Positions 2,881 to 41,600 of a stretch of DNA of 64,000 nt are shown here, piece after piece. How positions within the stretch are numbered: position 1 is the first letter of the stretch; each line of letters starts with the position of its first letter. This DNA comes from Spironucleus salmonicida. Taxonomy: Eukaryota. The position numbers and the translations under genes were made by a program. The notes beneath the pieces were generated by a model that saw only the letters and a program-made list of their open reading frames with translations, was not told the origin of the DNA and searched no databases. The stretch spans positions 992,001 through 1,056,000 of the forward strand of contig NC_090596.1 of the NCBI RefSeq assembly GCF_000497125.1, written 5' to 3'.

Positions 2881-4509
2881 ATGCAGCTGGTCGTGGCAAC
2901 GCTGACGACGGAGTTCATCTATACAAAGTACCAGACCAACCTCACGAACTGCTACTCCACGCAGACCACCATCCTGTACAACCGGAACATCAACCGCATC
3001 GTGGTCACCCTCGCCTCCGAGAACAACACGCAGTGCGCCGTCTTCCCGCAGGGCGTCGAGGCGCAGCTGGCCTTCCAGACCTCCGGGATCCCCATCCAGC
3101 GCATCCAGGTCGCGAACTTCTCCTACGCCAACACCACGGAGCTCGTGTTCGAGGGCGTCCCGGACATCGTCTCCGAGGAGTTCGTGGTGCTCAACGTGTA
3201 CTCCTACGGCTATATCACAGAGCGCAGCATCTTCATCTTCCAGGAGCAGAAGTCCTCGCTCACGCAGTGCTTCGAGCCCTCCTCCACCGTGAACATCCAC
3301 GTAGACAAGCTCATCGTCACCATGCACTCCACCAAGCTCTGCACCAACCAGTTTGACACGATAACGGATGGGGAAACGCCGCCTGTAACTATCGGGGAGC
3401 TGACCTCGGCGACGCTGAACGTCCAGGGGTCTATCTTCAGCCTAGAAGTCAAAACCTTCCAAGGCGATTACAAGAAAGGTGAGAAGCTGACCCTGGAAGT
3501 ACCCCTCACCGGACCCCAATCCGAGCAGCTGCTGCTGATTGTCGCCCCCAACGCCACCGTGACCTTCGAATCGCTCCAGGGCGGCGCGGTCGTCACGTTC
3601 GACCACAACATCGGCGAGGTCACCAGCACGGGGATCGTAGTTGGCACCGACACCTTCTGGAACCCCGCGCAGAAGCCGCAGCTGGGCCTGTTTTAGGGCA
3701 TCTACATGCTCAGAATGTAGTATAGTCCGAACATTGAAAAGCTCTAACCGTAAATCGATAAACTAAAATTTGACAACATTATGTACCGCATTTCCGGATT
3801 GGCCCCGAATGCTAGCAATGCGCAGTAAGTAACGATCTAGACGACCACTTTTGACAGAAAAATCCGTTTCCTCTCATTTACGTGCGATCAAGGCCGCCAG
3901 CTGGAAAGAAATCTTTGCATGAATTTTTACAATGTGGCCAATCAGATGAACGTCTCTACGACGATTTATCTTGATCTCATATTTCAGCTAGGGTCGATAT
4001 ACGTGCATATAGAGAAATCGGTCGTCGATATTCAGAACAAGATGATTTCGTCAGCAATTGCTAGCCTGGGCCACAATTAGGCCAAGCTTTAAATACTGTC
4101 TAAAATAGCTATTGAGATTCCACCCAACACGGAGCTAAAGGTAAAATTTACGGTTTTATAAAACTCTAATCCAGCTGATTTCGACGACCCAGCCCTGTCC
4201 TTTGAGGTCCAATAGACGGTGAGTGACGTACGGGAGCTAATTCGCTTTACGTGCGATTCAAAGTGCAAAATGTTGATGAAACGCCTGCAAGTTAACCATT
4301 TGGCCTTTTACTAGCTCGAGTCTAACCTATTAGATGGCGTAATTTTTGCAAATTCTATTTTCGATGACGATTATCTAATTATGGAAGGGATAATTATAGG
4401 GGCGTCTTTGATAGTTATTCTTGTTCTAGTGATCACAAGCATAATTGGCATGGTGTTACTAATGAAGCAGATGAAAAAATAGAGCAAGAGGAAGGCCAAA
4501 AAGCTATGA
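2881..4509 (+). CDS. Type-I membrane (probable surface) protein family, copy 1, 542 aa
   Basis: The 271-aa track ORF continues through TAG=Gln to TGA4507. C-terminal hydrophobic helix (GIIIGASLIVILVLVITSIIGMVLLM), basic tail KQMKKQSKRKAKKL, several NxS/T sequons, sparse Cys. Four more same-length paralogues in the window. Confidence 0.9.
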
Positions 4510-4784
4510 GGGAGTTTTTCATTCATTTTTGCATTATAGATATATAATAATGTGATATAAGGTGTTTTTAAGTTCAAAAACTGTGAGATAAAACTACAAG
4601 AGAAGGAGTTTTGATAAAACCTCTATATATTTAAAATTATAAGGACCTCGAGATTATAATTTAGGAAAGATCGGAAATGATGATAAATGACAATTAATAT
4701 CCGTATATGATAAAAATTAAAAACTAATAATAACTTACACTATTAATATACTGATGTTTAGAGTATAATGTAAACTTAAAAATT

Positions 4785-5063
4785 ATGGGGTCTGTTTCGT
4801 CGCTTGTAAATGAATCGGATTCATACTTAATTTAACTAGATCCTAAGCAGCTACCGTAGGCCAAAGTGTAATAATCATAACCGGTAACACCTAGCACAAT
4901 AAGAAAAAATGTATCGTCTATGTTTTATGAACCTGTTAGTAAGCAACATAAAATGACATTAAGTAAGTCGCATAGTATTGTAATATAAAGAGAACTTCTA
5001 GAATAAAGTAATTTACGTCTAAATGTGCTTCTTGAAAATAGACTAAATGAGGAATCTGATTGA
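4785..5063 (+). CDS. Small hypothetical protein, 92 aa, MG-initiated family (MGSVSSLVNESDSYLI...)
   Basis: Code-6 ORF with an MGxxxS N-myristoylation-like start. Confidence 0.65.
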
Positions 5064-8980: not shown

Positions 8981-11900
8981 AAAATTCGTGTTCTCACTGG
9001 AAAATTCGTGTTCTCAAAGTAGTAAATTCGTGTTCTTAAGTAGTAAATTCGTGTTCTCAAAGTAGTAAATTCGTGTTCTTAAGTAGTAAATTCGTGTTCT
9101 CAAAGTAGTAAATTCGTGTTCTCAAAGTAGTAAATTCGTGTTCTTAAGTAGTAAATTCGTGTTCTCAAAGTAGTAAATTCGTGTTCTCAAAGTAGTAAAT
9201 TCGTGTTCTTAAGTAGTAAATTCGTGTTCTTAAGTAGTAAATTCGTGTTCTCAAAGTAGTAAATTCGTGTTCTTAAAGTAGTAAATTCGTGTTCTCAAAG
9301 TAGTAAATTCGTGTTCTTAAGTAGTAAATTCGTGTTCTCAAAGTAGTAAATTCGTGTTCTTAAGTAGTAAATTCGTGTTCTTAAGTAGTAAATTCGTGTT
9401 CTTAAAGTAGTAAATTCGTGTTCTCAAAGTAGTAAATTCGTGTTCTTAAGTAGTAAATTCGTGTTCTCAAAGTAGTAAATTCGTGTTCTTAAGTAGTAAA
9501 TTCGTGTTCTTAAGTAGTAAATTCGTGTTCTTAAGTAGTAAATTCGTGTTCTCAAAGTAGTAAATTCGTGTTCTTAAAGTAGTAAATTCGTGTTCTCAAA
9601 GTAGTAAATTCGTGTTCTTAAGTAGTAAATTCGTGTTCTCAAAGTAGTAAATTCGTGTTCTTAAAGTAGTAAATTCGTGTTCTCAAAGTAGTAAATTCGT
9701 GTTCTTAAGTAGTAAATTCGTGTTCTCAAAGTAGTAAATTCGTGTTCTTAAGTAGTAAATTCGTGTTCTCAAAGTAGTAAATTCGTGTTCTCAAAGTAGT
9801 AAATTCGTGTTCTTAAGTAGTAAATTCGTGTTCTCAAAGTAGTAAATTCGTGTTCTCAAAGTAGTAAATTCGTGTTCTTAAGTAGTAAATTCGTGTTCTC
9901 AAAGTAGTAAATTCGTGTTCTTAAGTAGTAAATTCGTGTTCTTAAGTAGTAAATTCGTGTTCTCAAAGTAGTAAATTCGTGTTCTTAAGTAGTAAATTCG
10001 TGTTCTCAAAGTAGTAAATTCGTGTTCTTAAGTAGTAAATTCGTGTTCTTAAGTAGTAAATTCGTGTTCTTAAGTAGTAAATTCGTGTTCTCAAAGTAGT
10101 AAATTCGTGTTCTTAAAGTAGTAAATTCGTGTTCTTAAGTAGTAAATTCGTGTTCTCAAAGTAGTAAATTCGTGTTCTCACTGGAAAATTCGTGTTCTCA
10201 AAGTAGTAAATTCGTGTTCTCAAAGTAGTAAATTCGTGTTCTCAAAGTAGTAAATTCGTGTTCTTAAGTAGTAAATTCGTGTTCTTAAGTAGTAAATTCG
10301 TGTTCTCAAAGTAGTAAATTCGTGTTCTTAAGTAGTAAATTCGTGTTCTCAAAGTAGTAAATTCGTGTTCTTAAGTAGTAAATTCGTGTTCTCAAAGTAG
10401 TAAATTCGTGTTCTCAAAGTAGTAAATTCGTGTTCTTAAAGTAGTAAATTCGTGTTCTCACTGGAAAATTCGTGTTCTCAAAGTAGTAAATTCGTGTTCT
10501 CAAAGTAGTAAATTCGTGTTCTCAAAGTAGTAAATTCGTGTTCTTAAGTAGTAAATTCGTGTTCTTAAGTAGTAAATTCGTGTTCTTAAAGTAGTAAATT
10601 CGTGTTCTTAAGTAGTAAATTCGTGTTCTCACTGGAAAATTCGTGTTCTCAAAGTAGTAAATTCGTGTTCTCAAAGTAGTAAATTCGTGTTCTTAAGTAG
10701 TAAATTCGTGTTCTTAAGTAGTAAATTCGTGTTCTCAAAGTAGTAAATTCGTGTTCTTAAGTAGTAAATTCGTGTTCTTAAAGTAGTAAATTCGTGTTCT
10801 TAAGTAGTAAATTCGTGTTCTCAAAGTAGTAAATTCGTGTTCTCAAAGTAGTAAATTCGTGTTCTTAAGTAGTAAATTCGTGTTCTCAAAGTAGTAAATT
10901 CGTGTTCTTAAGTAGTAAATTCGTGTTCTCAAAGTAGTAAATTCGTGTTCTTAAAGTAGTAAATTCGTGTTCTCAAAGTAGTAAATTCGTGTTCTTAAGT
11001 AGTAAATTCGTGTTCTCAAAGTAGTAAATTCGTGTTCTTAAGTAGTAAATTCGTGTTCTCAAAGTAGTAAATTCGTGTTCTTAAAGTAGTAAATTCGTGT
11101 TCTCAAAGTAGTAAATTCGTGTTCTTAAAGTAGTAAATTCGTGTTCTCAAAGTAGTAAATTCGTGTTCTTAAGTAGTAAATTCGTGTTCTCAAAGTAGTA
11201 AATTCGTGTTCTTAAAGTAGTAAATTCGTGTTCTCAAAGTAGTAAATTCGTGTTCTTAAAGTAGTAAATTCGTGTTCTTAAAGTAGTAAATTCGTGTTCT
11301 TAAAGTAGTAAATTCGTGTTCTTAAAGTAGTAAATTCGTGTTCTCAAAGTAGTAAATTCGTGTTCTTAAGTAGTAAATTCGTGTTCTCACTGGAAAATTC
11401 GTGTTCTCAAAGTAGTAAATTCGTGTTCTTAAGTAGTAAATTCGTGTTCTCAAAGTAGTAAATTCGTGTTCTCAAAGTAGTAAATTCGTGTTCTCAAAGT
11501 AGTAAATTCGTGTTCTTAAGTAGTAAATTCGTGTTCTCAAAGTAGTAAATTCGTGTTCTCAAAGTAGTAAATTCGTGTTCTCAAAGTAGTAAATTCGTGT
11601 TCTTAAGTAGTAAATTCGTGTTCTCAAAGTAGTAAATTCGTGTTCTCAAAGTAGTAAATTCGTGTTCTCAAAGTAGTAAATTCGTGTTCTTAAGTAGTAA
11701 ATTCGTGTTCTTAAGTAGTAAATTCGTGTTCTCAAAGTAGTAAATTCGTGTTCTTAAAGTAGTAAATTCGTGTTCTCAAAGTAGTAAATTCGTGTTCTTA
11801 AGTAGTAAATTCGTGTTCTCAAAGTAGTAAATTCGTGTTCTCACTGGAAAATTCGTGTTCTCAAAGTAGTAAATTCGTGTTCTCAAAGTAGTAAATTCGT

Positions 11901-22694: not shown

Positions 22695-24323
22695 ATGCAG
22701 CTGGTCGTGGCAACGCTGACGACGGAGTTCATCTACACGAAGTACCAGACCAACCTCACGAACTGCTACTCCACGCAGACCACCATACTCTACAACCGGA
22801 ACATCAACCGCATCGTGGTCACCCTCGCCTCCGAGAACAACACGCAGTGCGCCGTCTTCCCGCAGGGCGTCGAGGCGCAGCTGGCCTTCCAGAAGTCTGG
22901 TATCCCCATCCAGCGCATCCAGGTCGCGAACTTCTCCTACGCCAACACCACGGAGCTCGTGTTCGAGGGCGTCCCGGACATCGCCTCCGAGGAGTTCGTG
23001 GTGCTCAACGTGTACTCCTACGGCTACATCACGGAGCGCAGCATCTTCATCTTCCAGGAGCAGAAGTCCTCGCTCACGCAGTGCTTCGAGCCCTCCTCCA
23101 CCGTGAACATCCACGAGACCAAGCTCATCGTCACCATGCACTCCACCAAGCTCTGCACCAACCAGTTTGACACGATAACGGATGGGGCAACGCCGCCTGT
23201 AACTATCGGGGAGCTGACCTCGGCGACGCTGAACGTCCAGGGGTCTATCTTCAGCCTAGAAGTCAAAACCTTCCAAGACGATTACAAGAAAGGTGAGAAG
23301 CTGACCCTGGAAGTAACCCTCACCGGACCCCAATCCGAGCAGCTGCTGCTGATTGTCGCCCCCAACGCCACCGTGACCTTCGAGTCGCTCCAGGGCGGCG
23401 CGGTCGTCACGTTCGACCACAACATCGGCGAGGTCACCAGCACGGGGATCGTAGTTGGCGACGACACCTTCTGGAACCCCGCGCAGAAGCCGCAGCTGGG
23501 CCTGTTTTAGGGCATCTACATGCTCAGAATGTAGTATAGTCCGAACATTGCGAACCTCTAAACGGACATCGAAAAACTCAAATTCGACAACATTATGTAC
23601 AGAATCACAGGATTATCCCCAAATTCGAGGAATGCGTAATAAATTACTATACAGACGACAGTTTTCGACGAAAATCTCCGTTTCATCGCCTTTGCGTGCA
23701 ATCAAGGCCGCAAACTAGAAAGATAGCTTTGTATGGACTTCTACAACGTCGCCAGCACCCCAGGTATATCAACTTCGCTCTATCTCGATATTATCTTCCA
23801 GCTCGGATCGCAGTACGTCCACATCGAGAAATAGAACGTGGAGATTTAAGTCAAACAGATTTCTGCATCAGTCGTGAGCGTAGGGCATAAAGAAGCCTAC
23901 ATTTAGGTTATGTCAAAAAGCCACTTCCCGATTCCACCGAATTCGATGCTAAAGGTGAAATTCACCGTTTTGTAAAATTCGAATTCAGCTCCCTTTGAGG
24001 ATCCAGCTCTAACATTTGAAGTCAGTCAAGCTGTAAGCACTATTCTAGCTCCGATCCGTTTTGCCTGCAACGAAAAGTGCATGACGCTGATGAGTAGAGT
24101 CCAGAGCTACGACGACGCGTTTTACCAGCTGGAGCTTAGCTTGCTACCTGGGGTAATCTTTGGAGACCTCATTTTCGAGGACGACTACAGGGTAGTTTAG
24201 GGCGTTGTGATGGGCATTTCTCTACTGGTAATAGCCATCCTGATCGTAACCAGCATCATAGGGATCGTTTTGCTCATGAAGCAGATGAAGAAGCAGAGCA
24301 AGAGGAAGGCCAAGAAGCTGTGA
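22695..24323 (+). CDS. Type-I membrane protein family, copy 2, 542 aa
   Basis: Paralogue of 2881-4509, same length, C-terminal TM plus KRKAKKL. Confidence 0.9.
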
Positions 24324-24536
24324 TACTATTTTTTCAATAAATTTATTTTCATATATTTTAGGAAGGGTGTGAAATATTATTGATAGTTGATACACTTAAT
24401 TAATACATCTATATTAATGTAAAAACAAAAAACATATAATACGTCAAAAAATAACAATTAATTCCATTACTAAACATAAGATATATTTTTATTTATTAAT
24501 ATTATTCAAATAAAATACATCAAACCAAATTTATAA

Positions 24537-26165
24537 ATGCAGCTGGTCGTGGCAACGCTGACGACGGAGTTCATCTACACGAAGTACCAGACCAACCTCA
24601 CGAACTGCTACTCCACGCAGACCACCATACTCTACAACCGGAACATCAACCGCATCGTGGTCACCCTCGCCTCCGAGAACAACACGCAGTGCGCCGTCTT
24701 CCCGCAGGGCGTCGAGGCGCAGCTGGCCTTCCAGAAGTCTGGTATCCCCATCCAGCGCATCCAGGTCGCGAACTTCTCCTACGCCAACACCACGGAGCTC
24801 GTGTTCGAGGGCGTCCCGGACATCGCCTCCGAGGAGTTCGTGGTGCTCAACGTGTACTCCTACGGCTACATCACGGAGCGCAGCATCTTCATCTTCCAGG
24901 AGCAGAAGTCCTCGCTCACGCAGTGCTTCGAGCCCTCCTCCACCGTGAACATCCACGAGACCAAGCTCATCGTCACCATGCACTCCACCAAGCTCTGCAC
25001 CAACCAGTTTGACACGATAACGGATGGGGCAACGCCGCCTGTAACTATCGGGGAGCTGACCTCGGCGACGCTGAACGTCCAGGGGTCTATCTTCAGCCTA
25101 GAAGTCAAAACCTTCCAAGACGATTACAAGAAAGGTGAGAAGCTGACCCTGGAAGTAACCCTCACCGGACCCCAATCCGAGCAGCTGCTGCTGATTGTCG
25201 CCCCCAACGCCACCGTGACCTTCGAGTCGCTCCAGGGCGGCGCGGTCGTCACGTTCGACCACAACATCGGCGAGGTCACCAGCACGGGGTTCGTATCGGG
25301 AACCGACACCTTCTGGAACCCAGCGCAGAAGCCCCAGCTGGGCCTGTTTTAGGGCATCTACATGCTCAGAATGTAGTATAGTCCGAACATTGCGAACCTC
25401 TAAACGGACATCGAAAAACTCAAATTTGACAACATCATGTACCGGATTTCCGGAATAGCCCCAAATGCTAGTAATGCGCAGTAAGTAACGATCTCGACAA
25501 GCACTTTTGACAGAAATATTAGGTTTCTGTCGTTCACGTGCAACCAGGGTCGTGAGCTGGAGAGAAAACTCTGTCTGGACTTCTACGACATCGCAAACAC
25601 CCCAGATATATCAACGTCGATCTATCTTGATATTATCTTCCAGCTCGGATCGCAGTACGTCCACATCGAGAAGCAGAGTGTGGAGATTCAAAATAAGGAA
25701 GTCTCCGCGGTGGTGACCAGCTTAGGCTACAAGCAAGCCAAAATCCAGGTTTTTTCTACAGTCGCGTTTAATATTACACCTAATTCTGTTCTGAATATCA
25801 AGTTCACGGTTTTCTAGAACTCTGATCCCACTCCATTCGATGACACAAAGTTATCTTTCGAGGTTCAACAAAAGGTCAACACTCTCAGAGAGCCAATAGG
25901 CTTCCCCTGCGATGTGAAATGCATCATGCTCATTAAGCGTGTTTAGAGCAACCCGGAAGCGTTTTACGAACTGGAGCTTAGCCTGCTGCCTGGGGTAATC
26001 TTTGCAAATTTCATTTTCGAGGACGACTACAGGGTAGTTTAGGGCGTTGTGATGGGCATTTCTCTGCTGGTAATAGCCATCCTGGTCGTAACCAGCATCA
26101 TAGGGATCGTTTTGCTCATGAAGCAGATGAAGAAGCAGAGCAAGAGGAAGGCCAAGAAGCTCTGA
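24537..26165 (+). CDS. Type-I membrane protein family, copy 3, 542 aa
   Basis: Tandem to copy 2, same architecture. Confidence 0.9.
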
Positions 26166-26185
26166 GTGATCGGGTTCGTACGCTG

Positions 26186-26500
26186 TCAGTCGAAGAGGAT
26201 GTCCTCCAGGTCGATGGTTCCGCGTTGTGCGCTGGTGCTGAAGGCGTGCAGCAGCTGGCGCGGCGGTGCCGTCACGGCCACGGAGGGCCGTCTGGTGGCA
26301 GGGTGGAGCAGCTACTAGGGAGTCGGGGGCCGCTGGCTGGGAAGCGGCTGGCGGCTGTCCCGCTGCGCCCGGAGCTGCGCCAGGTAGTCCGCCTTGACGG
26401 GTCGCGGGGCTGGCTGGGGGCGCCGGGGCTCGAGCTGCTGGGCGGAGGCGGTCTGGCGGCCGCGGAAGGCATTGCGCAGCGTGACGGGGCAGACGTGCAT
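26186..26500 (-). CDS. Small Pro/Arg/Gln-rich hypothetical protein, 104 aa
   Basis: Code-6 ORF MHVCPVTLRN...IDLEDILFD, GC-rich, preceded by a short TATATATT element. Confidence 0.6.
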
Positions 26501-26535
26501 TTTCGCGGGTACGGTAATATATAGTAGCAGGTCGG

Positions 26536-27654
26536 TCACTCGCTCTTCTTGGCCTTCTTGACCGCGGCCTTGGCGGGCTCGGCCTTCTTCGGCTCGGGGT
26601 CGGACTTCTCGGCGGGGGCTGCCTCGGCCGCGGCGGAGCAGCACTTGACGGCGCACACGGCGAGGGGCACGGCGACGAGGAGGCCGGCGACGAGCGTGAG
26701 GGCGCCCACGATCAGGGCCTGCTGGAGCTGGCTGTACTGGACCACCCAGCCCATGAACTCCTGGTACCTGCCGCGGAGCTCGGCCCTGGCCTTGGCGGGG
26801 GAGCCGGCGACGGGCGCCACGAGGCCCTTGCGGACCTGGTCCACGAAGGGGAGGAAGCCGGCGAAGTCCGCGACCTCGGCGGCGTACTTGGTAGTGCCGT
26901 CCATGACGAGCGCGCAGGGGAGCACGGTGCAGTTGAAGTCCTTGATGAAGGAGTCCCACTTGCCGCCGTCCACGTGCGCGTAGTTGAAGTCCCCGGCGGC
27001 GGTCTCGACGGCCTCCACCACGTCCCTGACGTTCTCCCCGGAGGCGTGCGCGTACATGGCGAGCTTCCTGAGACTGATGTCCCTGTAGTTGTCGGGCCCG
27101 AGGGCCGGCAGCAGGCCGTGCTTCACGCTCAGAATCCATTTTCTGATAGTTTCACCATCAAATTTTCCTTAGAAAATAACTTCTCTGTCTTTACCCTTAA
27201 AAACAAGCTTATTCGCACCTTTTTTAACTTCAATTTTAACTTTTCCTTTTACTGCTTCAAAGAGCTTTTATTCTCTGCTAAGTTACTCGCTGAACCAGAT
27301 AAATTTATCACCAGTCTCTTCTTTTCCTTCAATAAGTACATCTCCTTGCATAGCTTCCATAAAATTGATCATGGCTTCAGCATTACGCTCACCATCATAA
27401 TCAAAAGTATTTCCTCCATAGAAAAACTTAAGTGCTGGGTAACCTGATACTCCATATTTTCCACAGACTTCACTGTTTTCAGTACAGTCGATTTCGACAA
27501 TATCGTATTTAGATAGTGTAGAAAGTCTTTCATACTCTGGAGCAAGAGCCTTACAGTGACCACACCATGGAGCAAAAAACTTGACAAATTGAGTTTTTTC
27601 TGGTTCAAATGTGCTTGTTGTTTGAGATAGCACTTCAGCCAAAATATATAGCAT
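26536..27654 (-). CDS. Membrane-anchored protein disulfide isomerase (TMX3-like layout), 372 aa
   Basis: Two track ORFs join in one code-6 frame: short signal peptide, thioredoxin domain FVKFFAPWCGHCK, C-terminal TM and ...KKAKKSE (KKXX ER retrieval). Confidence 0.9.
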
Positions 27655-28660: not shown

Positions 28661-30151
28661 TCAGAGCATATCATCTGAGTTTATATTTTTTACTTTTTAA
28701 TATGTTTTTAAACATTTATATTTGAGACTAAACTAAATGAAACACACCACCACAGTTATTATCATAACAATAGCCATTTGAAGACTCATAAAAAAGTAAT
28801 ACTCATCGTTTAAAGAAATCAAAATTTGCATGAAGCAATCATCTTCTGCTTCACCTTTTAATAAAAGAAGAAAACTTGTCGAATACATTTTTTACATTTT
28901 CTCAATTAGTTACTAGTTTTTTAAAAAGTTAACTTTAAATTCAGTATCAGAGGCATTGAAAAAAATATTTTTCGTCAATAAAACTTAATAGTTATCTTCA
29001 AGTTAATGCTCTAAACTGATATAACCCTGAATTAGTAATGTATAATTACCAGTTTTTAACTCACAATCTTAAACTACTTTACTATAAAGTTTCATAATAT
29101 TATTATTTAAACTAAAAATGCTATCAAAAAAACATGTTCTACCTGTTTCGGCCATTAATATATATCTTGCCATATGCCCGCGATTTACCAAGTTTATACC
29201 AAGAATAATGGCAGAATTTTCAGCATAAGATTAGATTGCACATTAAAGAAACGTAGATTTGTCTAAAAATTAATTTTAATTCAAAAATAATGAAATATCG
29301 TCATCATCCGATAAAAACTAATCAATAGGCATAATTAAATTATATGAACAAGTGCTAAATTTGAAATTCATATTTACATACTAAAATGTTTATGCAAATT
29401 TTTTGAAATTTGTATCAACTTTAATATGAACAAAAACACCATCAGAATACAAAAAAGCATCAGTAATTACACCTATAGGTGTAAGATAGCTTTCAGAGAT
29501 TAAAAATTGGTCTGTCTCAGCTGAATCTTATACTAAATCTCCATAGTATATAGTTAATAATTAACTCTGAATTCCAAATAAAGAGATGCGATCAGAAAAG
29601 TCAGGCATACTAATATTGAAACTTATTGTGGATTCTAGAGTAGTGATTATATTCTAATAAAAAGTTTAGCAATTGACTATACAAATGGTAAAAGCCACGT
29701 TTGTAACAGGTTCTACTATAACAGGATTAAGAATTACTTCAAAGTGTAGTAATTTATCGTCATATTCAGACTTATTTACTCTCTCAATTACATATGATGA
29801 ATCTGATCTTGTTAATGTTACTTCTTAAACTTACTAGAAGTACACATGAGAATATGACTTGAGATAAAATGAAACAGCTTAAATGCCAAAATAGTCTGAT
29901 ACTTAACCAACTTAAAATGTAACTATAAGATCTGTATTTGTTGTAAAATTGATAAGAGTTGTTTAAATATCCAGTGTAGAATCTGAAAATCTAAGCTCAA
30001 ATATAACACCAGGTGGAAAACTGTTACATTGTACGTCTCCAGTGGGGTAAAGATGTAGACTAACAACATTAAGTAATGCTTAAATTTTGAATTATGTTTA
30101 TATTGTGTAACAATTATCGATGGTTATGAGCTATGTAATTATAACTATCAT
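28661..30151 (-). CDS. Distant paralogue of the 542-aa membrane family, 496 aa, AT-rich
   Basis: IDNCYTIQT...QCNSFPPGV...LKSYSH aligns with LTNCYSTQT...QCAVFPQGV...VYSYGY. C-terminal TM. Reading frame spot-checked, not read end to end. Confidence 0.75.
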
Positions 30152-31205: not shown

Positions 31206-31211
31206 CTACCG

Positions 31212-31222
31212 AGGAGTGGAAA
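31212..31222 (-). promoter_or_regulatory. C-rich upstream motif TTTCCACTCCT, 6 nt before the RPL10A ATG
   Basis: Identical 11-mer to the one upstream of PheRS. Confidence 0.6.
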
Positions 31223-31387
31223 TTACAATTTATTTGCTATTATGTATAACTATAACTATATAATATTAAGTATATATAAAAGTAAAAACCAATTATCTCA
31301 AATTTAACTATTATTTTATATTAATATCAAATAGTTATTCTGAATCAATAACTATTATTAAATAAACTTATTTTATCTAATTCCAGA

Positions 31388-31717
31388 ATGGGATGTGGAG
31401 GATCATTTATCGAAGAGTACGAAGCAGTGGCAAAAGACGCACAAAGGGAGAAACTACCGCCCTGGATGCGCGAACCATTACAGAAGTCTACAGAGGGTGT
31501 GCAGCTCTATCTGCAGATCCAGGAGGAGGAGTTCATCGATTTTGACATTCTAGAGGCAATCGGAAAGCTGGACACCGACATGCGGGACTCGGGCCGCTCA
31601 GCGATCTGGAACCCCGGCAAGGGCACGCAGAACTTCGATACGCAGTCATACGAGAAGGTCGACAAGAACCTCTTCAACATCCAGGAGAACCTCTCCGATG
31701 AGCAGGGAACGGAGTGA
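31388..31717 (+). CDS. Small protein, 109 aa, MGCGGS start (possible dual acylation)
   Basis: Track ORF ending GAG TGA. Confidence 0.8.
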   Translation: MGCGGSFIEEYEAVAKDAQREKLPPWMREPLQKSTEGVQLYLQIQEEEFIDFDILEAIGKLDTDMRDSGRSAIWNPGKGTQNFDTQSYEKVDKNLFNIQENLSDEQGTE

Positions 31718-31723
31718 AAGCGA

Positions 31724-33028
31724 TCACTCGGGAGCGCCACGCGCCACACCGGTAAGTTCCCTGCTCCGCTGGCACGTGTGCACGCTGGAGGCCAGGATCA
31801 CCGCCGTTGACTCTGCGACGTCCGCGAGCTCCTTTCTGAACTCCTGAATTTCGACTCCTTTCTAATACAAATTCTCGTAAAATGCGTCGATTTCGGCCTT
31901 GGGGCGAGGAGTGCTGGTTTGGAGCGGGTTTGCTGCGGGCTAATTTTTCTTGTTTTTCTAACCGTTCTAGGCGTCTCTGGACCGCTTTTGGAGCGCGAGC
32001 TGTGCGGCGTTTTCGTTGATTTTCGGATTGTAGCTGAACTCCTCTTCTGGCAGATCTGAGGGCGCTGCGAATTCGCGTCTGGGGAGCAGGTAGCTTAGCT
32101 CAATCGGGACTCGGTCCTCAACCGTTTTGCTGTTTATTTGGGGCTGGAAGCTGTGCGTGAGCGTTTTACTTTGCTTCACTTTTGCGCTGAGCTTCGCATT
32201 GGCCTCCTTCAGCATCAGGAACTGCCGCTGGACGACTTTTTCGGTGACCTCGAGCTCCTTTGCTAAGGTGGTGATTTTCGGCTTAAAGTCATAGTCCTCG
32301 TTGTACTTTTCGGCTAATTTGCATACTTTCGCCTTTTGAAAGTCGCTATAACCGGTTGGGTTCTGAACGAAATTCTACTACCTTTTTTAGGCAAGAATCT
32401 CTGATTTTTAGTTGATTTGTGGCTAGAAGTTATCCATCTGGACTACGACTTTCTTTTCTGGTTTCGGTCTTTCGGTAAATTAATAATCGTTTATTTTTGG
32501 AGAAAATAGGTATTTCTCTTCTTATACTTGCTTAGGCTGGGATTTTTGAATGCTGAACTCCTTGACTTCCGTGGATGTAATCAAATCAATTTTTTTTTAT
32601 TTCTATAAGTCTAGGATTCTCTATTTCACTGCAACTTGTTGAGGGGTGGCAAAAACGACCTTAGGATATAATTCAGCTCCATTTTCGATTTAAGATAGAA
32701 CTTGTTTCATAAAATTTTAAAGCAATTCCTCAGGAAGCTGAAATTATTCTAAATAATTCATCGCGATTTATGTGTGCACTTGCCTAATGGTAACCGCACC
32801 ATTATATAGGAGAGGGTCTAAAACTTTCGGTAATTTGAACGTGTGCCTTGTAGACTCTACATCCAAACCTGCACCAGGTGAATATTACTAAGGGATAAGT
32901 AAGTTAATAGTATGAAATTGAGGCTCTGTAATATTTATTTTCTATTATTTCTAAGTAGAGTTCTGTAGAAGTGCAATAGCTCTTTGTTTTCTAGACTGTG
33001 ATAAAGTAGATGAAAGTGACGAATTCAT
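31724..33028 (-). CDS. Hypothetical protein, 434 aa, repeated FxPxIN/T motifs (possibly cytoskeletal)
   Basis: Code-6 ORF with FSPKIN, FQPQIN twice, FKPKIT and YNPKIN. Ends GAG TGA, 6 bp from the convergent 31717 stop. Confidence 0.8.
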
Positions 33029-33727
33029 TTAAAATGGGAATAGATTTGTTATATATTATACCTCAAGCGGATTAACCTCAAAAAATTATAAACTATATAT
33101 TATCAATATGTTTAATGAATATAGGATATAATATTATTATGGCTCATATTTTGGAAACTTAGACATTGCCCAATGCTCAAATAATAATTAAAAACAATGT
33201 TTGATGTTAAATCGACCACTTATAAATTAAATGGTAAATTCAATCAATTTAGTGGGTAGAAAAATCAATAAATATTTTAGCATTTAATATAGTGTGATTC
33301 AAAAATATACCAGTATTTTGGTACTTATAAATAGTAAATCCTTTAATGAACTAAAATACACTTTTTTAAATCATAAATAAATGAATTAGTAAATGTAAGT
33401 GTAAATAAAATTATGTTTGGCTTATTTTCATAGTATAAATTCAAAATCATGGTTGTTGCGCTAAAACAAATTCGCAATTAATCTTTATTCGTTCATTAAT
33501 AATATTATTTCTTATAAATTTGTTTTTAATCAAATTATTACTTATTTTTAACATATTAGGATCTAAGGAGTATATTTATTTAATAATTATATTCAAATTC
33601 CATTAGTTTTCTACACAAATTTCTATATATAAAAAAATTAACTAGTTTCAGTATTACTAATCAAACTCGCGATTAAATTATATTATTATATATAATTTAT
33701 AATAAAACTAGTCAACTATAGTTGAGA

Positions 33728-34339
33728 ATGGACGAAAATTAATTATAAGAATTCAAAAACAAAACCCTAGAATTTGCATTAATAGCATCGATTCCAATTT
33801 GTTACTATCCATTTATAACGAAAACCTACCAAATGAGCCTTTACCAGCTTTCTGAATTTTTGCAAAAATCATACAAAACAACATTCTCATACATCCAAAT
33901 AGCTTTAGAGATTTTTCTCTCTTTTTCCGATTTCGTCCTCTTCAAAATCTCATTCCAGTCATCCCGAAATCAGTATTTATGCATTTTCTACCATTCTTCC
34001 ATATTCATTTACCTGCTTTACGGCTTTGCGCGGGACATCGAGAACCCTACGATTTCGCCCGTGGTCGATATTTTTAACAAAACAATGCTCTTTGGAGCTC
34101 AGTTTATCACATATAAGCTCTTCCAAAGCTACACGTCCAATTAACCGGATTTCCAGTCAAATTTCTAGTTCGGAAAGCACCTGCAGAGCCAAATCCAGCA
34201 AGTATTCGTCTGCCCCGTTGCGCTAGGCCTCTGCCTCCTGAACTTTCACCAGCTGTGCAAATTCACGAATCTGGTCCCCCAGGAGGCGCAGAACGGAGAA
34301 TTCGACAACGCAATCCTCATCAACTACCAGTTCTAGTGA
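33728..34339 (+). CDS. Hypothetical, possibly membrane, protein, 203 aa
   Basis: Code-6 ORF ending TAG TGA, with hydrophobic stretches. Confidence 0.7.
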
Positions 34340-34348
34340 GCAAACTCT

Positions 34349-35431
34349 TCACTGCGCGAACTCCGTTTCGCACATGCCTTTCCTGCTCTCTGCGTCGAGT
34401 TTGAAGGGCGCGAATCCGGCGAAAACGGCCGCAATCGGGCACGCGAACTCCCCGCACGCCGCCAGTTTGACGGGCCGGTTTTGGTAGAATACCCTGAGCA
34501 CATCGCCGGCCAAAAGCTCGAAAACGATGTCGCTGGCGAACCTCGGCAGCTCGCACTCCCAGGCCCTGTTCGTTAGCGCAGACATCAGCGGGGCGATAAC
34601 GGTATCGTGCGAGGAGAAAATACCGAATTTGAGCCCGGATTGCATGAAGGATTCAATATCGTCGAAAATTGGGCCGATTGCCGCTTTCGTGTGGCTAGTG
34701 TAGAGCGTGTCGTTTTGGTTGCAGAAGAGGCCGTTCCAGAGCTTGTTCGTTTCGGCCTATGCCATGCGGAGCTCGTTGTCAGTGGCTGGGTGCGACTAGT
34801 TCATCGAAATCGACGACTAGAACGAGTCGTAGAACATGTCCCAATTTAGAGTGGTATTCGTCTTTGCCCTGAGCGCATTCAATTTCTTCAGATCGAAGCG
34901 CGTCTGGCTCTCGATGTACTGTTTGAATCCGATACGCCAGTTGCAAAGGTAGTGTGGGAACGTGCCGTCCAGCTGCGAATTTGGAGTGTAAACGGTCACG
35001 TTTTGGGGCACTGGGTACATCCCCTCTAGCTGGCCAGCGAGCGAGGCACGCGTTCTTGGAGTATCAGAAGACCGCAAATAGACGGTTGAGGGGTCATATT
35101 TTGAGCCGATTAGGTGGGAATATGCGAGTCTCCATCTTTTTCCCAGCTCTTTGTGCTGGTCAAAGCCGAGCTACACTAAATCACCTGGTTCACAGTTTTT
35201 AGATGGCTAATTGATCTTATGCTGGTGCTTTCCGTAGGAGATTATTGGCTACAGGCAAATAGGGTCCTATTCGCCAGGCAGCGGGTGGAATGAGGTTCTC
35301 GCACCATGGCGTGAAATGACAAGAACTTTTTGCACATCTGAAATTTAGTATTTTAGGTAGCTTTACACTAGAAATAATAGCGTTGTGAAGGAGACAATGA
35401 TTAAAGTTAAATATTTAACTTTTACTGCCAT
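34349..35431 (-). CDS. Histidine acid phosphatase (branch 2), 360 aa, N-terminal signal or anchor
   Basis: RHGART active-site motif, GDLV/GLDQHKELG segment and SSHDTVI acid motif in one code-6 frame. Confidence 0.9.
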
Positions 35432-35591
35432 TAGTGAAATGGCGAAAATAAATAAATTTCTTATATGGAATACAATAGATACTTTGCACATAATTTTTAA
35501 ATTGTATTCATGGATTATATACAGCTAATCATTCTATTGGTTGAAAAAGTATTTAAATACAAGTAGATCGGTTTACAGTTAACTAATAAAT

Positions 35592-35843
35592 TCACTACAT
35601 GCTTGAATTATTCAAGTCGTTTAAAATTTGAGTTAAATTTTAAACACTTTCGTTAAATCTACTCTTTTCAGTATGCAATTAATAGTCAGTAGGCAAACTT
35701 AAAGTTCTAGATTCAATATGTGATTTTTAATCTTCGATAATAAAAGAAATAGATTTAGGCTTTGGAACACACTAGGTCATTGACTCTTACTGTAGTAAAA
35801 ATCGATCTGCTGATAAGATTGTGTTATCAACCATTGCTCCCAT
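35592..35843 (-). CDS. Small hypothetical protein, 83 aa, MG-initiated family (MGAMVDNTILSADRFLL...)
   Basis: Code-6 ORF ending TAG TGA, with the SADxFLL motif. Confidence 0.65.
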
Positions 35844-36735
35844 TTTCTAAAAAAGAGAAAGTACTCTAATTTAAAAATATCTAGTTATCTATAATAATAG
35901 ATATAATTGGTTATATATAATGTAAGGGAAAAACTAAGTAAATAGGTTAGAAGTTTGTAATTAAAGCAAAAATGAAGGATAATAAAAACTAAACAAAAAC
36001 GTATGTGTCAGTTTTTTAAATATTGTTATTTAAGGATAATATACAGAAACATGGAAAAACAATAATATACAATATAAGTTGGAAAATTAGGTTTTCTAAC
36101 ACTTGCATTATTTAAAATAACTCATCAATAAAGTGTTTCGTTTATTAGTAAGAGTTAAGGTTAAATAAAATTTGAATCTACTTAAAATTATCTTTACAAA
36201 TTCCTCGAAAGGGCCGGACGATTTTTGGGTTAGGAATAATATTAAGATTACTTATCATAAAATCTAGAAATCCATAAAAATTATAGGGTTAAGGCTTATT
36301 TTTTTATAGTACTATTAAAATATCCCATAATTTACTAAACTGTTATTTCCGATGTATGATATGCTTTTACAACTCAAAGTAGAAATACGACTAGATTAAA
36401 AGTATAACCGGAAATTTGTTATCAAAATTAATACCTATGATTAACACTTATAAATTTATTTTATTGTCGTGATATAATAATTAGTGTAAACGTCATAGTG
36501 GATGCATTTATTATTTTTTAATTTAATCTCAAATACAATATGTTGTAGAGAAAACCATTATAATGTAAACTGATATACTATTTTGTATTCATATATAAAT
36601 ATTTATCAAGTTTAGATCTTATATAAAGCATAAATGATAATATTAATTATTCAAAGTCATTAATTATCTTAAATTTTATTTATCTGCACTAAATATTATA
36701 TAATATTTTCTATTTATACCGCTTCTAACTATAAA

Positions 36736-37377
36736 ATGTCACCTGGTAATGCAGTCTAAATTATAAAAATTATAGAACAACTTATTTTCATTCATAATTA
36801 AATTACATATTCGTTATAAGTAACAAAGCATCCTCCATAATTGAAACATGTATAGATATCAATTAATCGCCAACTTGTAACTCTCCTAGAGTGTATAAAG
36901 ACAAAATCTAATTATGGATTTTTTGCAGAGCTTTCTCTACTGTTTGACTAATTTTATCAAGGGACAAAAAGTCTTAATGCATTCTTGAATTACCTTCCTG
37001 AAATTATGTCCAACATCGAAATACTTCAAGTATATGACCTCAATAAACACTCAAACCTATTTATTTTTTATAGTAAAATATTTAAGTAGAAAACTTTTAA
37101 TTTCCAGCTTTTCCATTGTGAATAAGAAGAACGAAAAGTTTTCTAGAAAGAAAAAATAAAAGATTTTAATGTTGCTACAATAAAAGTAAAAGAGCGAGAA
37201 ATCTAATCTTTAAAATATACTTAACCTAAAACTAATGTTCGGTCTATTAAAACAGTATCTGGTCTTCGAAAAATATGCCAAAAACAACAATAGTTAATTG
37301 ATAAGTTAAAAGAAAGTGGCCAGTTTATCGATGAAATCAAGCTTTTAGAATTCGAAATTAGGTAGCTAGGTATTTGA
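36736..37377 (+). CDS. Hypothetical protein, 213 aa
   Basis: Code-6 ORF MSPGNAVQII...EIRQLGI. Confidence 0.7.
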
Positions 37378-37425
37378 AATGAGAGTGGTTTTTATTTTAT
37401 CTTATTTGTCGCCTTTCATACCTAA

Positions 37426-38028
37426 TGGATTCTGAGCGTGAAGCACGGCCTGCTGCCGGCCCTCGGGCCCGACAACTACCGGGACATCAGTCTCAGGAAG
37501 CTCGCCATGTACGCGCACGCCTCCGGGGAGAACGTCAGGGACGTGGTGGAGGCCGTCGAGACCGCCGCCGGGGACTTCAACTACGCGCACGTGGACGGCG
37601 GCAAGTGGGACTCCTTCATCAAGGACTTCAACTGCACCGTGCTCCCCTGCGCGCTCGTCATGGACGGCACTACCAAGTACGCCGCCGAGGTCGCGGACTT
37701 CGCCGGCTTCCTCCCCTTCGTGGACCAGGTCCGCAAGGGCCTCGTGGCGCCCGTCGCCGGCTCCCCCGCCAAGGCCAGGGCCGAGCTCCGCGGCAGGTAC
37801 CAGGAGTTCATGGGCTGGGTGGTCCAGTACAGCCAGCTCCAGCAGGCCCTGATCGTGGGCGCCCTCACGCTCGTCGCCGGCCTCCTCGTCGCCGTGCCCC
37901 TCGCCGTGTGCGCCGTCAAGTGCTGCTCCGCCGCGGCCGAGGCAGCCCCCGCCGAGAAGTCCGACCCCGAGCCGAAGAAGGCCGAGCCCGCCAAGGCCGC
38001 GGTCAAGAAGGCCAAGAAGAGCGAGTGA
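37426..38028 (+). pseudogene. 5'-truncated duplicate of the PDI gene (no signal peptide or CGHC domain)
   Basis: Protein sequence identical to the PDI C-terminal half. In-frame TGA at 37375 upstream; first in-frame ATG at 37507. Confidence 0.8.
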
Positions 38029-38063
38029 CCGACCTGCTACTATATATTACCGTACCCGCGAAA

Positions 38064-38109
38064 ATGCACGTCTGCCCCGTCACGCCTGGAGGACATCCTC
38101 TTCGACTGA
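38064..38109 (+). pseudogene. Internally deleted remnant of the 26186-26500 ORF
   Basis: ATGCACGTCTGCCCCGTCACG is joined directly to CCTGGAGGACATCCTCTTCGACTGA; 269 bp are missing. Confidence 0.85.
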
Positions 38110-38129
38110 CAGCGTACGACCCCGATCAC

Positions 38130-39758
38130 TCAGAGCTTCTTGGCCTTCCTCTTGCTCTGCTTCTTCATCTGCTTCATGAGCAAAACGATCCCTATGATGC
38201 TGGTTACGACCAGGATGGCTATTACCAGCAGAGAAATGCCCATCACAACGCCCTAAACTACCCTGTAGTCGTCCTCGAAAATGAAATTTGCAAAGATTAC
38301 CCCAGGCAGCAGGCTAAGCTCCAGTTCGTAAAACGCTTCCGGGTTGCTCTAAACACGCTTAATGAGCATGATGCATTTCACATCGCAGGGGAAGCCTATT
38401 GGCTCTCTGAGAGTGTTGACCTTTTGTTGAACCTCGAAAGATAACTTTGTGTCATCGAATGGAGTGGGATCAGAGTTCTAGAAAACCGTGAACTTGATAT
38501 TCAGAACAGAATTAGGTGTAATATTAAACGCGACTGTAGAAAAAACCTGGATTTTGGCTTGCTTGTAGCCTAAGCTGGTCACCACCGCGGAGACTTCCTT
38601 ATTTTGAATCTCCACACTCTATTTCTCGATGTGGACGTACTGCGATCCGAGCTGGAAGATAATATCAAGATAGATCGACGTTGATATATCTGGGGTGTTT
38701 GCGATGTCGTAGAAGTCCAGACAGAGTTTTCTCTCCAGCTCACGACCCTGGTTGCACGTGAACGACAGAAACCTAATATTTCTGTCAAAAGTGCTTGTCG
38801 AGATCGTTACTTACTGCGCATTACTAGCATTTGGGGCCAATCCGGAAATGCGGTACATAATGTTGTCAAATTTTAGTTTATCGATTTACGGTTAGAGCTT
38901 TTCAATGTTCGGACTATACTACATTCTGAGCATGTAGATGCCCTAAAACAGGCCCAGCTGCGGCTTCTGCGCTGGGTTCCAGAAGGTGTCGGTTCCCGAT
39001 ACGATCCCCGTGCTGGTGACCTCGCCGATGTTGTGGTCGAACGTGACGACCGCGCCGCCCTGGAGCGACTCGAAGGTCACGGTGGCGTTGGGGGCGACAA
39101 TCAGCAGCAGCTGCTCGGATTGGGCTGTGCTGAGCTTTACTTCCAGGGTCAGCTTCGCACCGTTCTTGTAGTCGTCTTGGAAGGTTTTGACTTCTAGGCT
39201 GAAGATAGACCCCTGAACGTTCAGCGTCGCCGAGGTCAGCTCCCCGATAGTTACAGGCGGCGTTGCCCCATCCGTTATCGTGTCAAACTGGTTGGTGCAG
39301 AGCTTGGTGGAGTGCATGGTGACGATGAGCTTGGTCTCGTGGATGTTCACGGTGGAGGAGGGCTCGAAGCACTGCGTGAGCGAGGACTTCTGCTCCTGGA
39401 AGATGAAGATGCTGCGCTCCGTGATGTAGCCGTAGGAGTACACGTTGAGCACCACGAACTCCTCGGAGGCGATGTCCGGGACGCCCTCGAACACGAGCTC
39501 CGTGGTGTTGGCGTAGGAGAAGTTCGCGACCTGGATGCGCTGGATGGGGATACCAGACTTCTGGAAGGCCAGCTGCGCCTCGACGCCCTGCGGGAAGACG
39601 GCGCACTGCGTGTTGTTCTCGGAGGCGAGGGTGACCACGATGCGGTTGATGTTCCGGTTGTAGAGTATGGTGGTCTGCGTGGAGTAGCAGTTCGTGAGGT
39701 TAGTCTGGTACTTCGTGTAGATGAACTCCGTCGTCAGCGTTGCCACGACCAGTTGCAT
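38130..39758 (-). CDS. Type-I membrane protein family, copy 4, 542 aa
   Basis: Inverted near-copy of copy 3 with patch differences. Confidence 0.9.
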
Positions 39759-39971
39759 TTATAAATTTGGTTTGATGTTTTTTATTTGAATAATATTAAT
39801 AAATAAAAATATATCTTATGTTTAGTAATGGAATTAATTGTTATTTTTTGATGTATTATATGTTTTTTGTTTTTACATTACTATAGATGTATTAATTAAG
39901 TGTATTAACTATCAATAATATTTCACACCCTTCCTAAAATATATGAAAATAAATTTATTGAAAAAATAGTA

Positions 39972-41600
39972 TCACAGCTTCTTGGCCTTTCTTCTTTTCT
40001 ATTACTTGATGCTCTTTAAGAGTTTGATTATTTAAATAATACTTGTAACAATTAAAAATACAATAATAATAAGGCTGAATCCAATAATGATACCTTACAT
40101 TACTCTTACATCATCAAGATATAAAAATGTTCCAAAAATTAAACCAGGCAGAAGATTTATATCAAGCTAATAATATACATACGATTACGATTAAATTATT
40201 TCTAATAGATTGTGGCATCTTTTATCACAATCAAATACTATATCTTCCTATAGTGAGTCTACTTATTATGAAATCTCAAGTTGTAAAGACGGATCTGAGA
40301 ATGGTAATGGATTACTATTTTATAAAATTGTTATATTTATTTTTAATAATGAATTTGGCGCAATATTATATTTTTTTAAAGAGTATATCTATATAGTTGC
40401 ATCATCATTACCTATACTCAATGTTGCTTATAAAATCTCTTTATTTTAAATTTCGGCTACTTATTTTTCAATATGTACATATTTTGAACCTAGTTAAAAG
40501 ATAATATCTATATAAATTGTAGTAACTATATTTATATCTGCAGCAATGTTATAAAACTTTTCACAAGCATCTCGCTCTAATTTACGACCTTCATCGCAAC
40601 TAAAATTCATGAATCGAAGATTTGGATCAAATTTAGCACCATGAATAGTTAACTACTAAGTTTTTGTTACATTAGGTGATATCCCAGTAAGACGGAACAT
40701 AATATTATCAAATTTTATTTTATTTATTTCCGGTTCTAAAATACTAATTTATGGATTAAAATTAAATTTCAGCATATAAAGACTCTAGAACAAACCTATC
40801 TATGGATTTTAATTAATATCCCAAAAACTTTCAGAACCTACAGTTAAACCTGTTGTTGTAACAATACCAACATCATGTTCAAAATCTACGTCAGTACCGC
40901 CTTAAAACGATGCAAATGTTATAGTAGCAGTAGGAGCTACTAATAGCAAGAGATGCTCTGATTATTGTATTGTCAGAGAAACTTCTAGAGTTAATGTATT
41001 GCCGTCTTTATATTCATCCTAAAAAGTTTTAACATTTAATCCAAAAATAGATCCTTCGATATTTAAAGATGCATAAGTTAATTCACCGATAACTACAGGC
41101 GGCGTTCCCCCGTCCGTTATCGTGTCAAACTGGTTGGTGCAGAGCTTGGTGGAGTTCATGGTGACGATGAGCTTGTCTACGTGGATGTTCACGGTGGAGG
41201 AGGTCTCGAAGCACTGCGTGAGCGAGGACTTCTGCTCCTGGAAGATGAAGATGCTGCGCTCCGTGATGTAGCCGTAGGAGTACACGTTGAGCACCACGAA
41301 CTCCTCGGAGGCGATGTCCGGGACGCCCTCGAACACGAGCTCCGTGGTGTTGGCGTAGGAGAAGTTCGCGACCTGGATGCGCTGGATGGGGATCCCGGAG
41401 GTCTGGAAGGCCAGCTGCGCCTCGACGCCCTGCGGGAAGACGGCGCACTGCGTGTTGTTCTCGGAGGCGAGGGTGACCACGATGCGGTTGATGTTCCGGT
41501 TGTAGAGTATGGTGGTCTGCGTGGAGTAGCAGTTCGTGAGGTTAGTCTGGTACTTCGTGTAGATGAACTCCGTCGTCAGCGTTGCCACGACCAGTTGCAT
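39972..41600 (-). CDS. Type-I membrane protein family, copy 5, 542 aa (GC-rich 5' third, AT-rich divergent remainder)
   Basis: Same length and C-terminal KAKKL. The first ~510 nt are near-identical to the other copies, the rest is diverged. Confidence 0.88.

Follow-up and report, generated by a model that had tools for sequence, protein, structure and literature searches.

The present analysis concerns a stretch of 64,000 nucleotides from Spironucleus salmonicida (contig NC_090596.1, positions 992,001 to 1,056,000 of the forward strand; hereafter the window), in which five genes, here called c1 to c5, encode related membrane proteins of 542 amino acids. The five genes and the patchwork of variants that they share are real and do not follow a single tree, and their membrane-distal domains are homogenised by conversion. 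Along the genes, the breakpoints in identity coincide with those in the GC content of third codon positions (GC3), which rises with the number of copies sharing a stretch, and the membrane-proximal half is saturated at silent sites. The locus is thus probably a case of mosaic concerted evolution, in which ectopic conversion with a strong GC bias acts on old paralogues of a type-I membrane protein. An earlier sequence-only reading of the window had proposed that ongoing ectopic conversion diversifies this family; segmental conversion is supported, but it homogenises the distal domains, and that reading had overlooked both the inverted duplication that carries four of the copies and the GC3 that follows the shared tracts.

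The five copies and their patchwork

The copies are old paralogues that span 39 kb in tandem and inverted orientation, with the following positions (aa, amino acids; nt, nucleotides; ORF, open reading frame; TM, transmembrane).

2881..4509, plus strand: c1, 542 aa; nt 1-926 common with c2-c4 at high identity, 3' half diverged, own upstream region
22695..24323, plus strand: c2, 542 aa; equal to c3 over nt 1-753, 799-890, 1093-1136, 1475-1529 and 1550-1625
24537..26165, plus strand: c3, 542 aa; ORF whose structure model has four beta-sandwich domains and a C-terminal TM helix
38130..39758, minus strand: c4, 542 aa; 28 differences from c3
38833..38972, minus strand: 140 bp over which c1 and c4 are identical; junction to c3-type sequence crossed by a run contig with 0 differences
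39125..39171, minus strand: patch found in c4 only; 9 substitutions, 6 amino-acid changes
39972..41600, minus strand: c5, 542 aa; GC3 0.95 over the shared first ~167 codons (about 41095-41600)

As had been noted before, all five are intact: the 542-codon ORFs are stop-free, colinear and without indels, and over 1629 nt they differ pairwise at between 28 (c3/c4) and 521 (c3/c5) positions. The motifs QTSG (nt 200-207) and HVDK (nt 422-425) are indeed present in c1 and c5, with QKSG and HETK in c2-c4, and c2 does match c3 over its last ~200 bp, with three differences from nt 1475 to the gene end. The conflict of such patches with a single tree, which the sequence-only reading had put forward, was borne out by our own permutation tests. 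A statistic similar to the pairwise homoplasy index, over 139 biallelic informative sites, reached 0.293 against a permuted mean of 0.400, with 0 of 10,000 permutations as low; at the 280 sites where c1 and c3 differ, c4 equals c1 at 16, 13 of them consecutive (0/100,000 permutations). Tracts are shared between inverted partners (c1/c5, c1/c4, c3/c4), as well as between tandem neighbours (c2/c3, c4/c5), and conversion would be the molecular event behind them.

Twelve of the 28 differences between c3 and c4 fall in 38838-38902, where a tract of ~65 bp had been ascribed to transfer from c1. Here c4 does equal c1; however, the tract is part of the 140-bp identity (nt 787-926), which extends the shared 5' block, and, because c2 equals c3 at eight of the twelve diagnostic sites (nt 857-885), a transfer from c2 to c3 between tandem neighbours fits as well, so that donor and direction can be read either way. 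The c4-only patch, KNGAKLTLEVKLSTAQ (KNGAK), covers 47 bp. It had been described as having no donor in the window, and none was found there or in the searched genome, where the four matches are c4 itself and c1-c3 (91-92%). It may be an unconverted relic, the trace of a lost copy or an allele.

Divergence along the protein

Over aa 1-165, all ten pairs of copies show proportions of synonymous differences (pS) of 0-0.10 and of nonsynonymous differences (pN) of 0-0.02, and since this part is constant at silent sites too, protein constraint alone is insufficient to account for it. Over aa 286-497, pS is 0.64-0.95 and pN 0.18-0.34 in nine of the ten pairs, the tenth (c3/c4) being near-identical. 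As pS is saturated and pN far lower, the variable membrane-proximal half described earlier does exist, but its variability is old divergence under purifying selection; the comparison of synonymous and nonsynonymous change by domain, proposed as a check for diversification, gives no sign of diversifying selection in aa 286-497 in these nine pairs, with the 47-bp patch of c4 as the exception.

By modelled domain, identity is 98-100% in domain 1, in agreement with the near-invariant N-terminal third reported before, 73-100% in domain 2, 54-95% in domain 3 and 42-58% in domain 4, except for c3/c4. The TM segment, previously regarded as largely conserved, is 55-58% identical in any pair with c1 or c5, and 97-100% solely among c2-c4. 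The tail, also taken as conserved, has the same protein sequence in c1-c4, even though c1 differs from c2-c4 there with a pS of ~0.7, but is only 60% identical in c5.

GC content and the shared tracts

The GC3 is 0.94-0.95 in the block common to five copies, 0.80-0.81 in the block common to four (where c5 has 0.17), and 0.51-0.58 in the proximal half of c1-c4, compared to 0.14 in that of c5; the whole unshared remainder of c5, up to the tail, lies at 0.14-0.19. When partners were counted in segments of 20 codons, a partner being a copy at least 90% identical (135 segments, not independent), the mean GC3 was 0.35 with no partner (39 segments), 0.54 with one (18), 0.72 with two (20), 0.81 with three (18) and 0.96 with four (40). 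The breakpoints of GC3 and of identity in c5 lie two codons apart, at 167 and 169 respectively, and GC3 falls at the tract edge from 0.95 to 0.17. The same coincidence is seen in an unrelated gene of the locus, the protein disulfide isomerase PDI-2, whose GC3 rises at codon 174 from 0.23 in its unique 5' part to 0.98 in its duplicated 3' part, the duplication breakpoint being at codon 172.

The letters that differ show the same trend. At third positions of aa 166-285, c5 has A or T (W) where c3 has G or C (S) at 79 sites, and the reverse at 4, the corresponding counts at first and second positions being 34 and 13; the totals, 113 W-to-S against 17 S-to-W differences, are unpolarised and taken without an outgroup. 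In addition, none of the 13 glutamine codons per copy in the five-way block is TAA or TAG, whereas these predominate in the unshared part of c5.

Outside this subfamily, partners were sought among the family loci in hand, in two separate sets, with a genome search for L017 only. Four of the five near-identical pairs are GC-rich where shared, with a GC3 of 0.96-0.97 in L006/L007, 0.89-0.90 in L012/L015 and mostly 0.7-0.9 along L027/L029, while L019/L020 have 0.81-0.83 in the N-terminal 112 codons that they share, compared to 0.23-0.24 elsewhere; of the unpartnered members examined, 13 of 16 are AT-rich. L015 (G000:C8:450572-451405) and L012 form an inverted pair, 96% identical outside the unshared AT-rich 5' end of L015. 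This end carries an in-frame stop, yet the shared body has a GC3 of 0.90; as a gene, L015 is broken, but its partner maintains its body, and its richness in GC argues against codon selection.

Proposed mechanism and points against it

According to the proposed mechanism, tandem and inverted neighbours would have been used repeatedly as mutual repair templates, that is, by non-allelic gene conversion, and the exchange would last only where the copies remain alike. The 5' part, encoding the membrane-distal domains, would thereby be homogenised in blocks nested within one another, one of about codons 1-167 common to all five copies and one reaching about codon 285-305 in c1-c4, and the 3' part would have escaped conversion, diverging slowly under purifying selection. 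If heteroduplex repair favours G and C, the converted tracts would rise from the genomic GC3 of ~0.17 toward 1, and more partners per stretch would give a higher GC3; this repair bias is the presumed cause of the high GC. Short tracts that have not yet spread would leave the patchwork.

Several observations weigh against this mechanism. L010 and L013 are near-identical, yet their shared codons have a GC3 of 0.40, the duplicated 213-bp intergenic region has 16% GC, and a perfect 1.4-kb palindrome (45134-48113) is AT-rich; identical but GC-poor duplicates would fit only if young or constrained. Conversely, L017, L025, part of L024, the acid phosphatase gene and the 3' end of the dynein gene are GC-rich without a partner. 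Such singletons may be relics whose partners are lost, as is the 104-codon ORF at 26186-26500 (GC3 0.89), most of whose partner has visibly been lost by deletion. Among the variable S/W sites of the five-way block, S occurs in one, two, three and four copies at 2, 4, 4 and 7 sites, a weak S excess, and the four-way block, with 6, 7 and 6 sites, has no excess. The best single GC3 breakpoint of c3 is at codon 157 and its identity breakpoint at 285, a mismatch arising because c3 has two GC3 steps. Finally, the changes are not polarised by outgroup or population data.

The protein and its family

Each copy has eight invariant cysteines in 542 residues (1.5%), no CXXC and no pair of cysteines two or three residues apart, which agrees with the earlier description of the family as Cys-poor and unlike VSPs; by cysteine, the family belongs to neither VSP nor CRMP. 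In c3, a single hydrophobic stretch (aa 497-533) is followed by a basic tail, and there are five to eight N-glycosylation sequons per protein. Hydrophobicity is only mild at the short N-terminus; for S. salmonicida, signal peptides are reported to be divergent (PMC3916229). Taken from the sequence, these features suggest a type-I topology.

The AlphaFold2 model (mean predicted local distance difference test score, pLDDT, 92.9; predicted TM-score, pTM, 0.78) places beta-sandwich domains of c3 at about aa 21-125, 126-250, 251-386 and 387-496. The best structural match is between domain 1 and the ligand-binding region of Enterococcus SgrA (5fce_B; Z 9.1, root mean square deviation 3.0 A, 101 residues); all others have a Z below 8, those of domains 3-4 reach at most 6.7, and whole-protein TM-scores are 0.12-0.23. 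The fold searches thus give generic beta-sandwich matches only (Ig-like or FnIII-like), by which a known family is neither shown nor excluded. Pfam returned no family for c1 and c2, and five families in one of 97 members each, none significant; a sequence-profile search of the PDB gave four matches, the best with an E of 0.11; and the best score in the ESM Atlas, 0.85, was to unnamed clusters and serves as a lead only. A HAP2-like fusogen was considered as well and rejected, nothing in favour of it being found among the matches listed beyond one low row for an Ig-like domain of EFF-1 (Z 5.9). Judged by the model, the protein is most likely a receptor- or adhesin-like scaffold of the secretory pathway or the surface.

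A word-based homologue search with c3 returned only the window's own four clusters among 6111 candidates, and the nearest relatives outside the window have 25-40% local identity, with no close orthologues. The family has at least 35 loci in this genome (two single-protein searches, with 21 matches and 14 more among 26), and a profile search gave 171 representatives at E <= 0.001. Of 20 representatives looked up, six are from Hexamita inflata, two from S. salmonicida, two in Giardia clusters and ten without an organism name. The Giardia relatives have 572 aa (EES98282.1, E 5e-22) and 887 aa (E 1e-10). As a side observation, the 887-aa protein EES99634.1 (P0112 cluster) has a Cys-rich N-terminal extension ahead of the family domains, and its annotation as a 'putative serine/threonine-protein kinase' is not obviously backed by its sequence.

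Across 97 sequences, conservation is 90% or more at C24, C52, Y82, C130 and C154, and disulfides would be expected in the family; domains 1-2 are its most conserved part. In a tree of 58 family proteins, made by a quick method and with long branches, the window copies group with three other S. salmonicida genes, and clusters are mostly lineage-specific. All ten paralogues fetched from the same genome are S. salmonicida proteins annotated as hypothetical or transmembrane, and six locus tags of family members had no mention in the main texts of the literature searched. The family is undescribed and Cys-poor, and no family name applies to it.

Cellular location

All five proteins, including the diverged c5, end in KAKKL, a KxKxx dilysine motif, so they could be residents of the endoplasmic reticulum (ER), retrieved by their C-terminus and absent from the surface; this is a serious possibility, although we lean away from it. 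Tandem beta-sandwich ectodomains are typical of surface proteins, which speaks for the surface. A terminal dilysine motif occurs in only six of 24 family proteins checked, four of the six being window proteins, and the basic tails seen family-wide may only set topology. For the ER, PDI-2, with the tail KKAKKSE, whose KKxx end belongs to one class of dilysine signal with KxKxx, has been located there, and three tagged CRMP-1 proteins were found at the surface, in the cell body and in ER-like structures, one each (PMC3916229). The RKAKK of all five tails also fits the CRMP-1 motif [KR][KR]X[KR][KR], which is easily met in basic tails and occurs in the last 30 residues of 10 of the 24 family proteins.

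Other explanations

Conversion could itself be generic, with selection keeping domain 1 shared, as the site of a common ligand or dimer partner, and purging conversions in the specialised domains 3-4. This account, compatible with GC-biased conversion, is favoured by the independent pair L019/L020, likewise homogenised in domain 1 only, by the tail of c1, which is held by selection despite its silent divergence, and by a like proposal for mammalian gene pairs (PMC2720389). However, the boundary in c5 lies within domain 2 and that of c1-c4 within domain 3, neither at a domain edge, and domains 1-2, being the best conserved family-wide, would stay convertible longest without any selection on the tract edge; we consider it rather unlikely.

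Regional mutation bias, hotspots of allelic recombination or codon selection, with duplication merely correlated, are improbable as the source of the high GC. The window does have GC-rich single-copy genes, and Andersson et al. considered regional mutation bias and selection (PMC1805757). Nevertheless, the GC step lies at most two codons from the duplication edge in two unrelated genes of the locus and coincides with the tract edge in L019/L020; GC is also high in the broken L015, and the highly expressed genes of this species have a GC3 near 0.4 and not 1 (PMC1805757).

It is likewise hard to credit antigenic variation, in which segmental conversion would be kept for producing new surface variants that evade fish antibodies. 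On its side are the real chimeras c4 and c5, the six amino-acid changes within 47 bp of the c4 patch, the fit of RKAKK to the motif of CRMP-1, of which one of three tagged proteins is on the cell surface (PMC3916229), and the life of S. salmonicida as a systemic fish pathogen. However, pN is well below pS in the variable half, and only five intact copies were found; protein and DNA searches of the genome, which give counts as lower bounds, returned neither silent cassettes nor fragments belonging to this subfamily. Moreover, homogenisation affects the membrane-distal part, the reverse of what holds for VSG or VlsE. The process is not family-specific, as the tract and GC signature recurs in the ER enzyme PDI-2, and many relatives belong to the free-living Hexamita inflata.

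Consensus or polishing artefacts of a repeat-rich assembly had been named as a further danger to the patches, and were checked over 38000-41700 against contigs from four public runs (X1, X2, X5 and X6) of two studies; the best DNA runs may derive from the source sample, and X5 and X6 are guessed to be RNA. The boundary in c5 is crossed by contigs in X1, X2 and X6 with 0 differences. In X5, a contig matches 38808-38932 with 0 differences; its letters are of c1 type at nt 909-921 and of c3 type at 927 and 936, a switch spaced more closely than one assembly word. Among the contig pieces listed, none in any run covers 41224-41471, where the c1/c5-type variants are. In the two runs guessed to be RNA, contig depth is ~120-520 over most c4/c3-type sequence and 0-18 over c5, values that cannot rank the genes.

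The c4-only patch, in turn, is matched by no contig, its place being taken by c3-type letters in X1 and X5 and left uncovered in X2 and X6, and none of 77 shorter database proteins covers c4 aa 150-330. Contigs drop minority variants, so that its absence from them is no evidence against it; that the patch taken alone is an artefact or a minor allele has perhaps one chance in several. For the patches as a whole, an artefact is extremely unlikely despite these two gaps, as the contigs agree with c4 at its c1/c3 junction and with c5 over its boundary, and saturated synonymous divergence and GC steps are beyond what artefacts can produce.

The inverted duplication and other features of the window

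The window is gene-dense and AT-rich, its long ORFs are open under NCBI table 6 only, and it encodes PheRS, PDI, ribosomal protein L10a, an acid phosphatase, an amino-acid transporter and a dynein heavy chain. Copies c2-c3 (plus strand) and c5-c4 (minus strand) are the two arms of an inverted duplication, outside which c1 stands, 18 kb away. Its first piece, 24303-26210 against 39992-38085, is 98.2% identical and takes in the 213-bp intergenic region; the second, 26479-27140 against 38085-37424, is 99.85% identical and corresponds to the 3' part of PDI-2. The right arm is without the 268 bp that separate both pieces on the left arm. A DNA search of the genome (query 22400-28400; counts are lower bounds) found no further close copy, and inside 27200-37400 such searches covered 33700-35700. 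The other features are as follows.

24324..24536, plus strand: c2/c3 intergenic region, 213 bp; 16% GC; its inverted copy differs at 4 positions
26186..26500, minus strand: 104-codon ORF; GC3 0.89; middle 268 bp deleted on the right arm
26536..27654, minus strand: protein disulfide isomerase with tail KKAKKSE, fitting the description of S. salmonicida PDI-2
28661..30151, minus strand: distant single-copy family member, 496 aa; ~15% identity; GC3 0.21; located in the spacer between the two arms
37424..38085, plus strand: 5'-truncated PDI-2 copy; 661/662 nt identical; without the thioredoxin domain
39759..39971, minus strand: c5/c4 intergenic region, the inverted counterpart of the 213 bp between c2 and c3

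The truncated PDI-2 copy (37424-38085) keeps the TM segment and the KKAKKSE tail but not the thioredoxin domain with its CGHC. In the two runs guessed to be RNA, a poly(A) loose end is seen at 38039, which could come from either PDI-2 copy. The single-copy acid phosphatase gene (34349-35491) has a GC3 of 0.7-0.8 in its 3' two-thirds. In the dynein heavy chain gene, GC3 is 0.5-0.9 in the last ~700 codons, with a smaller peak near the start and ~0.2 between, the GC-rich parts being at 50929-53000 and about 62500-63000; the 3' GC-rich patch has no near-identical copy in the genome.

The AT-rich palindrome at 45134-48113, whose arms of 1413 nt, reported to be 100% complementary, enclose a spacer of 154 nt, has no copy elsewhere except short matches at 43365-43582, and is either a young inverted duplication or an assembly artefact. 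A 4.6-kb satellite (8982-13548; 31% GC) consists of ~203 copies of a 22-bp unit, then 8.6 perfect copies of a different 22-bp unit. In addition, ~90 bp at 18929-19022 match two places on contig C9 with 93-98% identity.

Significance

The process is a known homogenising one, unusually strong, acting on an undescribed protein family. The locus offers a within-gene, multi-copy test of the hard-to-explain high-GC3 genes of S. salmonicida, a binucleate protist for which no sexual cycle is known: as GC3 rises with partner number and, in two unrelated genes, changes abruptly where a tract ends, GC-biased ectopic conversion becomes directly testable. Analyses of codon usage and dN/dS in the gene families of this species would be confounded by such conversion. 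The locus also exposes a large unnamed membrane-protein family common to Spironucleus, Hexamita and Giardia; its importance would be much higher if the copies were switched on the surface, from which the evidence points away.

More tentatively, a family of Cys-poor receptors or adhesins, present throughout the diplomonads and built of four beta-sandwich domains, might form a second large membrane-protein repertoire next to the cysteine-rich ones. In S. salmonicida, an unusually strong GC-biased conversion would then maintain the common distal domain on copies that differ in their proximal domains, yield new chimeras and explain the genes with a GC3 near 1. If so, GC3 would chart the recombination between copies, past and present, lost partners included.

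Comparison with known systems

In Borrelia vlsE, Anaplasma msp2 and the mosaic VSGs of trypanosomes, antigenic variation proceeds by segmental conversion. As in c1-c5, short tracts move between homologous surface-type genes and chimeras are formed; however, neither an expression site nor silent donors were found for c1-c5, and their distal domain is homogenised and not varied. With proteins bearing Ig-like or FnIII-like ectodomains, SgrA being the best match, the likeness lies in each domain being a beta-sandwich and is one of generic fold only.

Giardia VSPs and CRMP-1/CRMP-2 are also multigene, with one C-terminal TM segment and a short basic tail (PMC3916229, PMC11437800). VSP-like proteins are defined by more than 10% cysteine and CRMPs by at least three CXXC/CXC motifs (PMC3916229, PMC11437800), whereas c1-c5 have 1.5% cysteine, no CXXC, a beta-sandwich ectodomain, five close copies and no evidence of switching.

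In S. salmonicida itself, high-GC3 genes have been described as unexplained in two surveys (PMC1805757, PMC2874811), duplicated regions have a mean GC of 44.7% compared to 30.7%, and gene conversion has been suggested for the cysteine-rich families (PMC9509377). The published GC-rich regions have sharp GC shifts like those seen here (PMC1805757, PMC2874811, PMC9509377); what the present locus adds is the tie between the GC step and the edge of a conversion tract inside genes. A search joining 'Spironucleus' with 'biased gene conversion' found no paper among openly accessible main texts.

The closest likeness in pattern is to the mammalian pairs BMP8A/B, DDX19A/B and TUBG1/2, described by Carson and Scherer (2009) as mosaic concerted evolution with GC enrichment (PMC2720389). 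In these direct and inverted pairs, one part of the gene is homogenised and another diverges, as in c1-c5, and GC3 is likewise higher in the concerted part, which was there credited to biased gene conversion (PMC2720389). Compared to them, the present case involves five copies that share nested blocks, in a protist with few introns; the swing in GC3 between ~0.17 and 0.96 lies no more than two codons from the tract edge, and GC3 scales with the number of partners.

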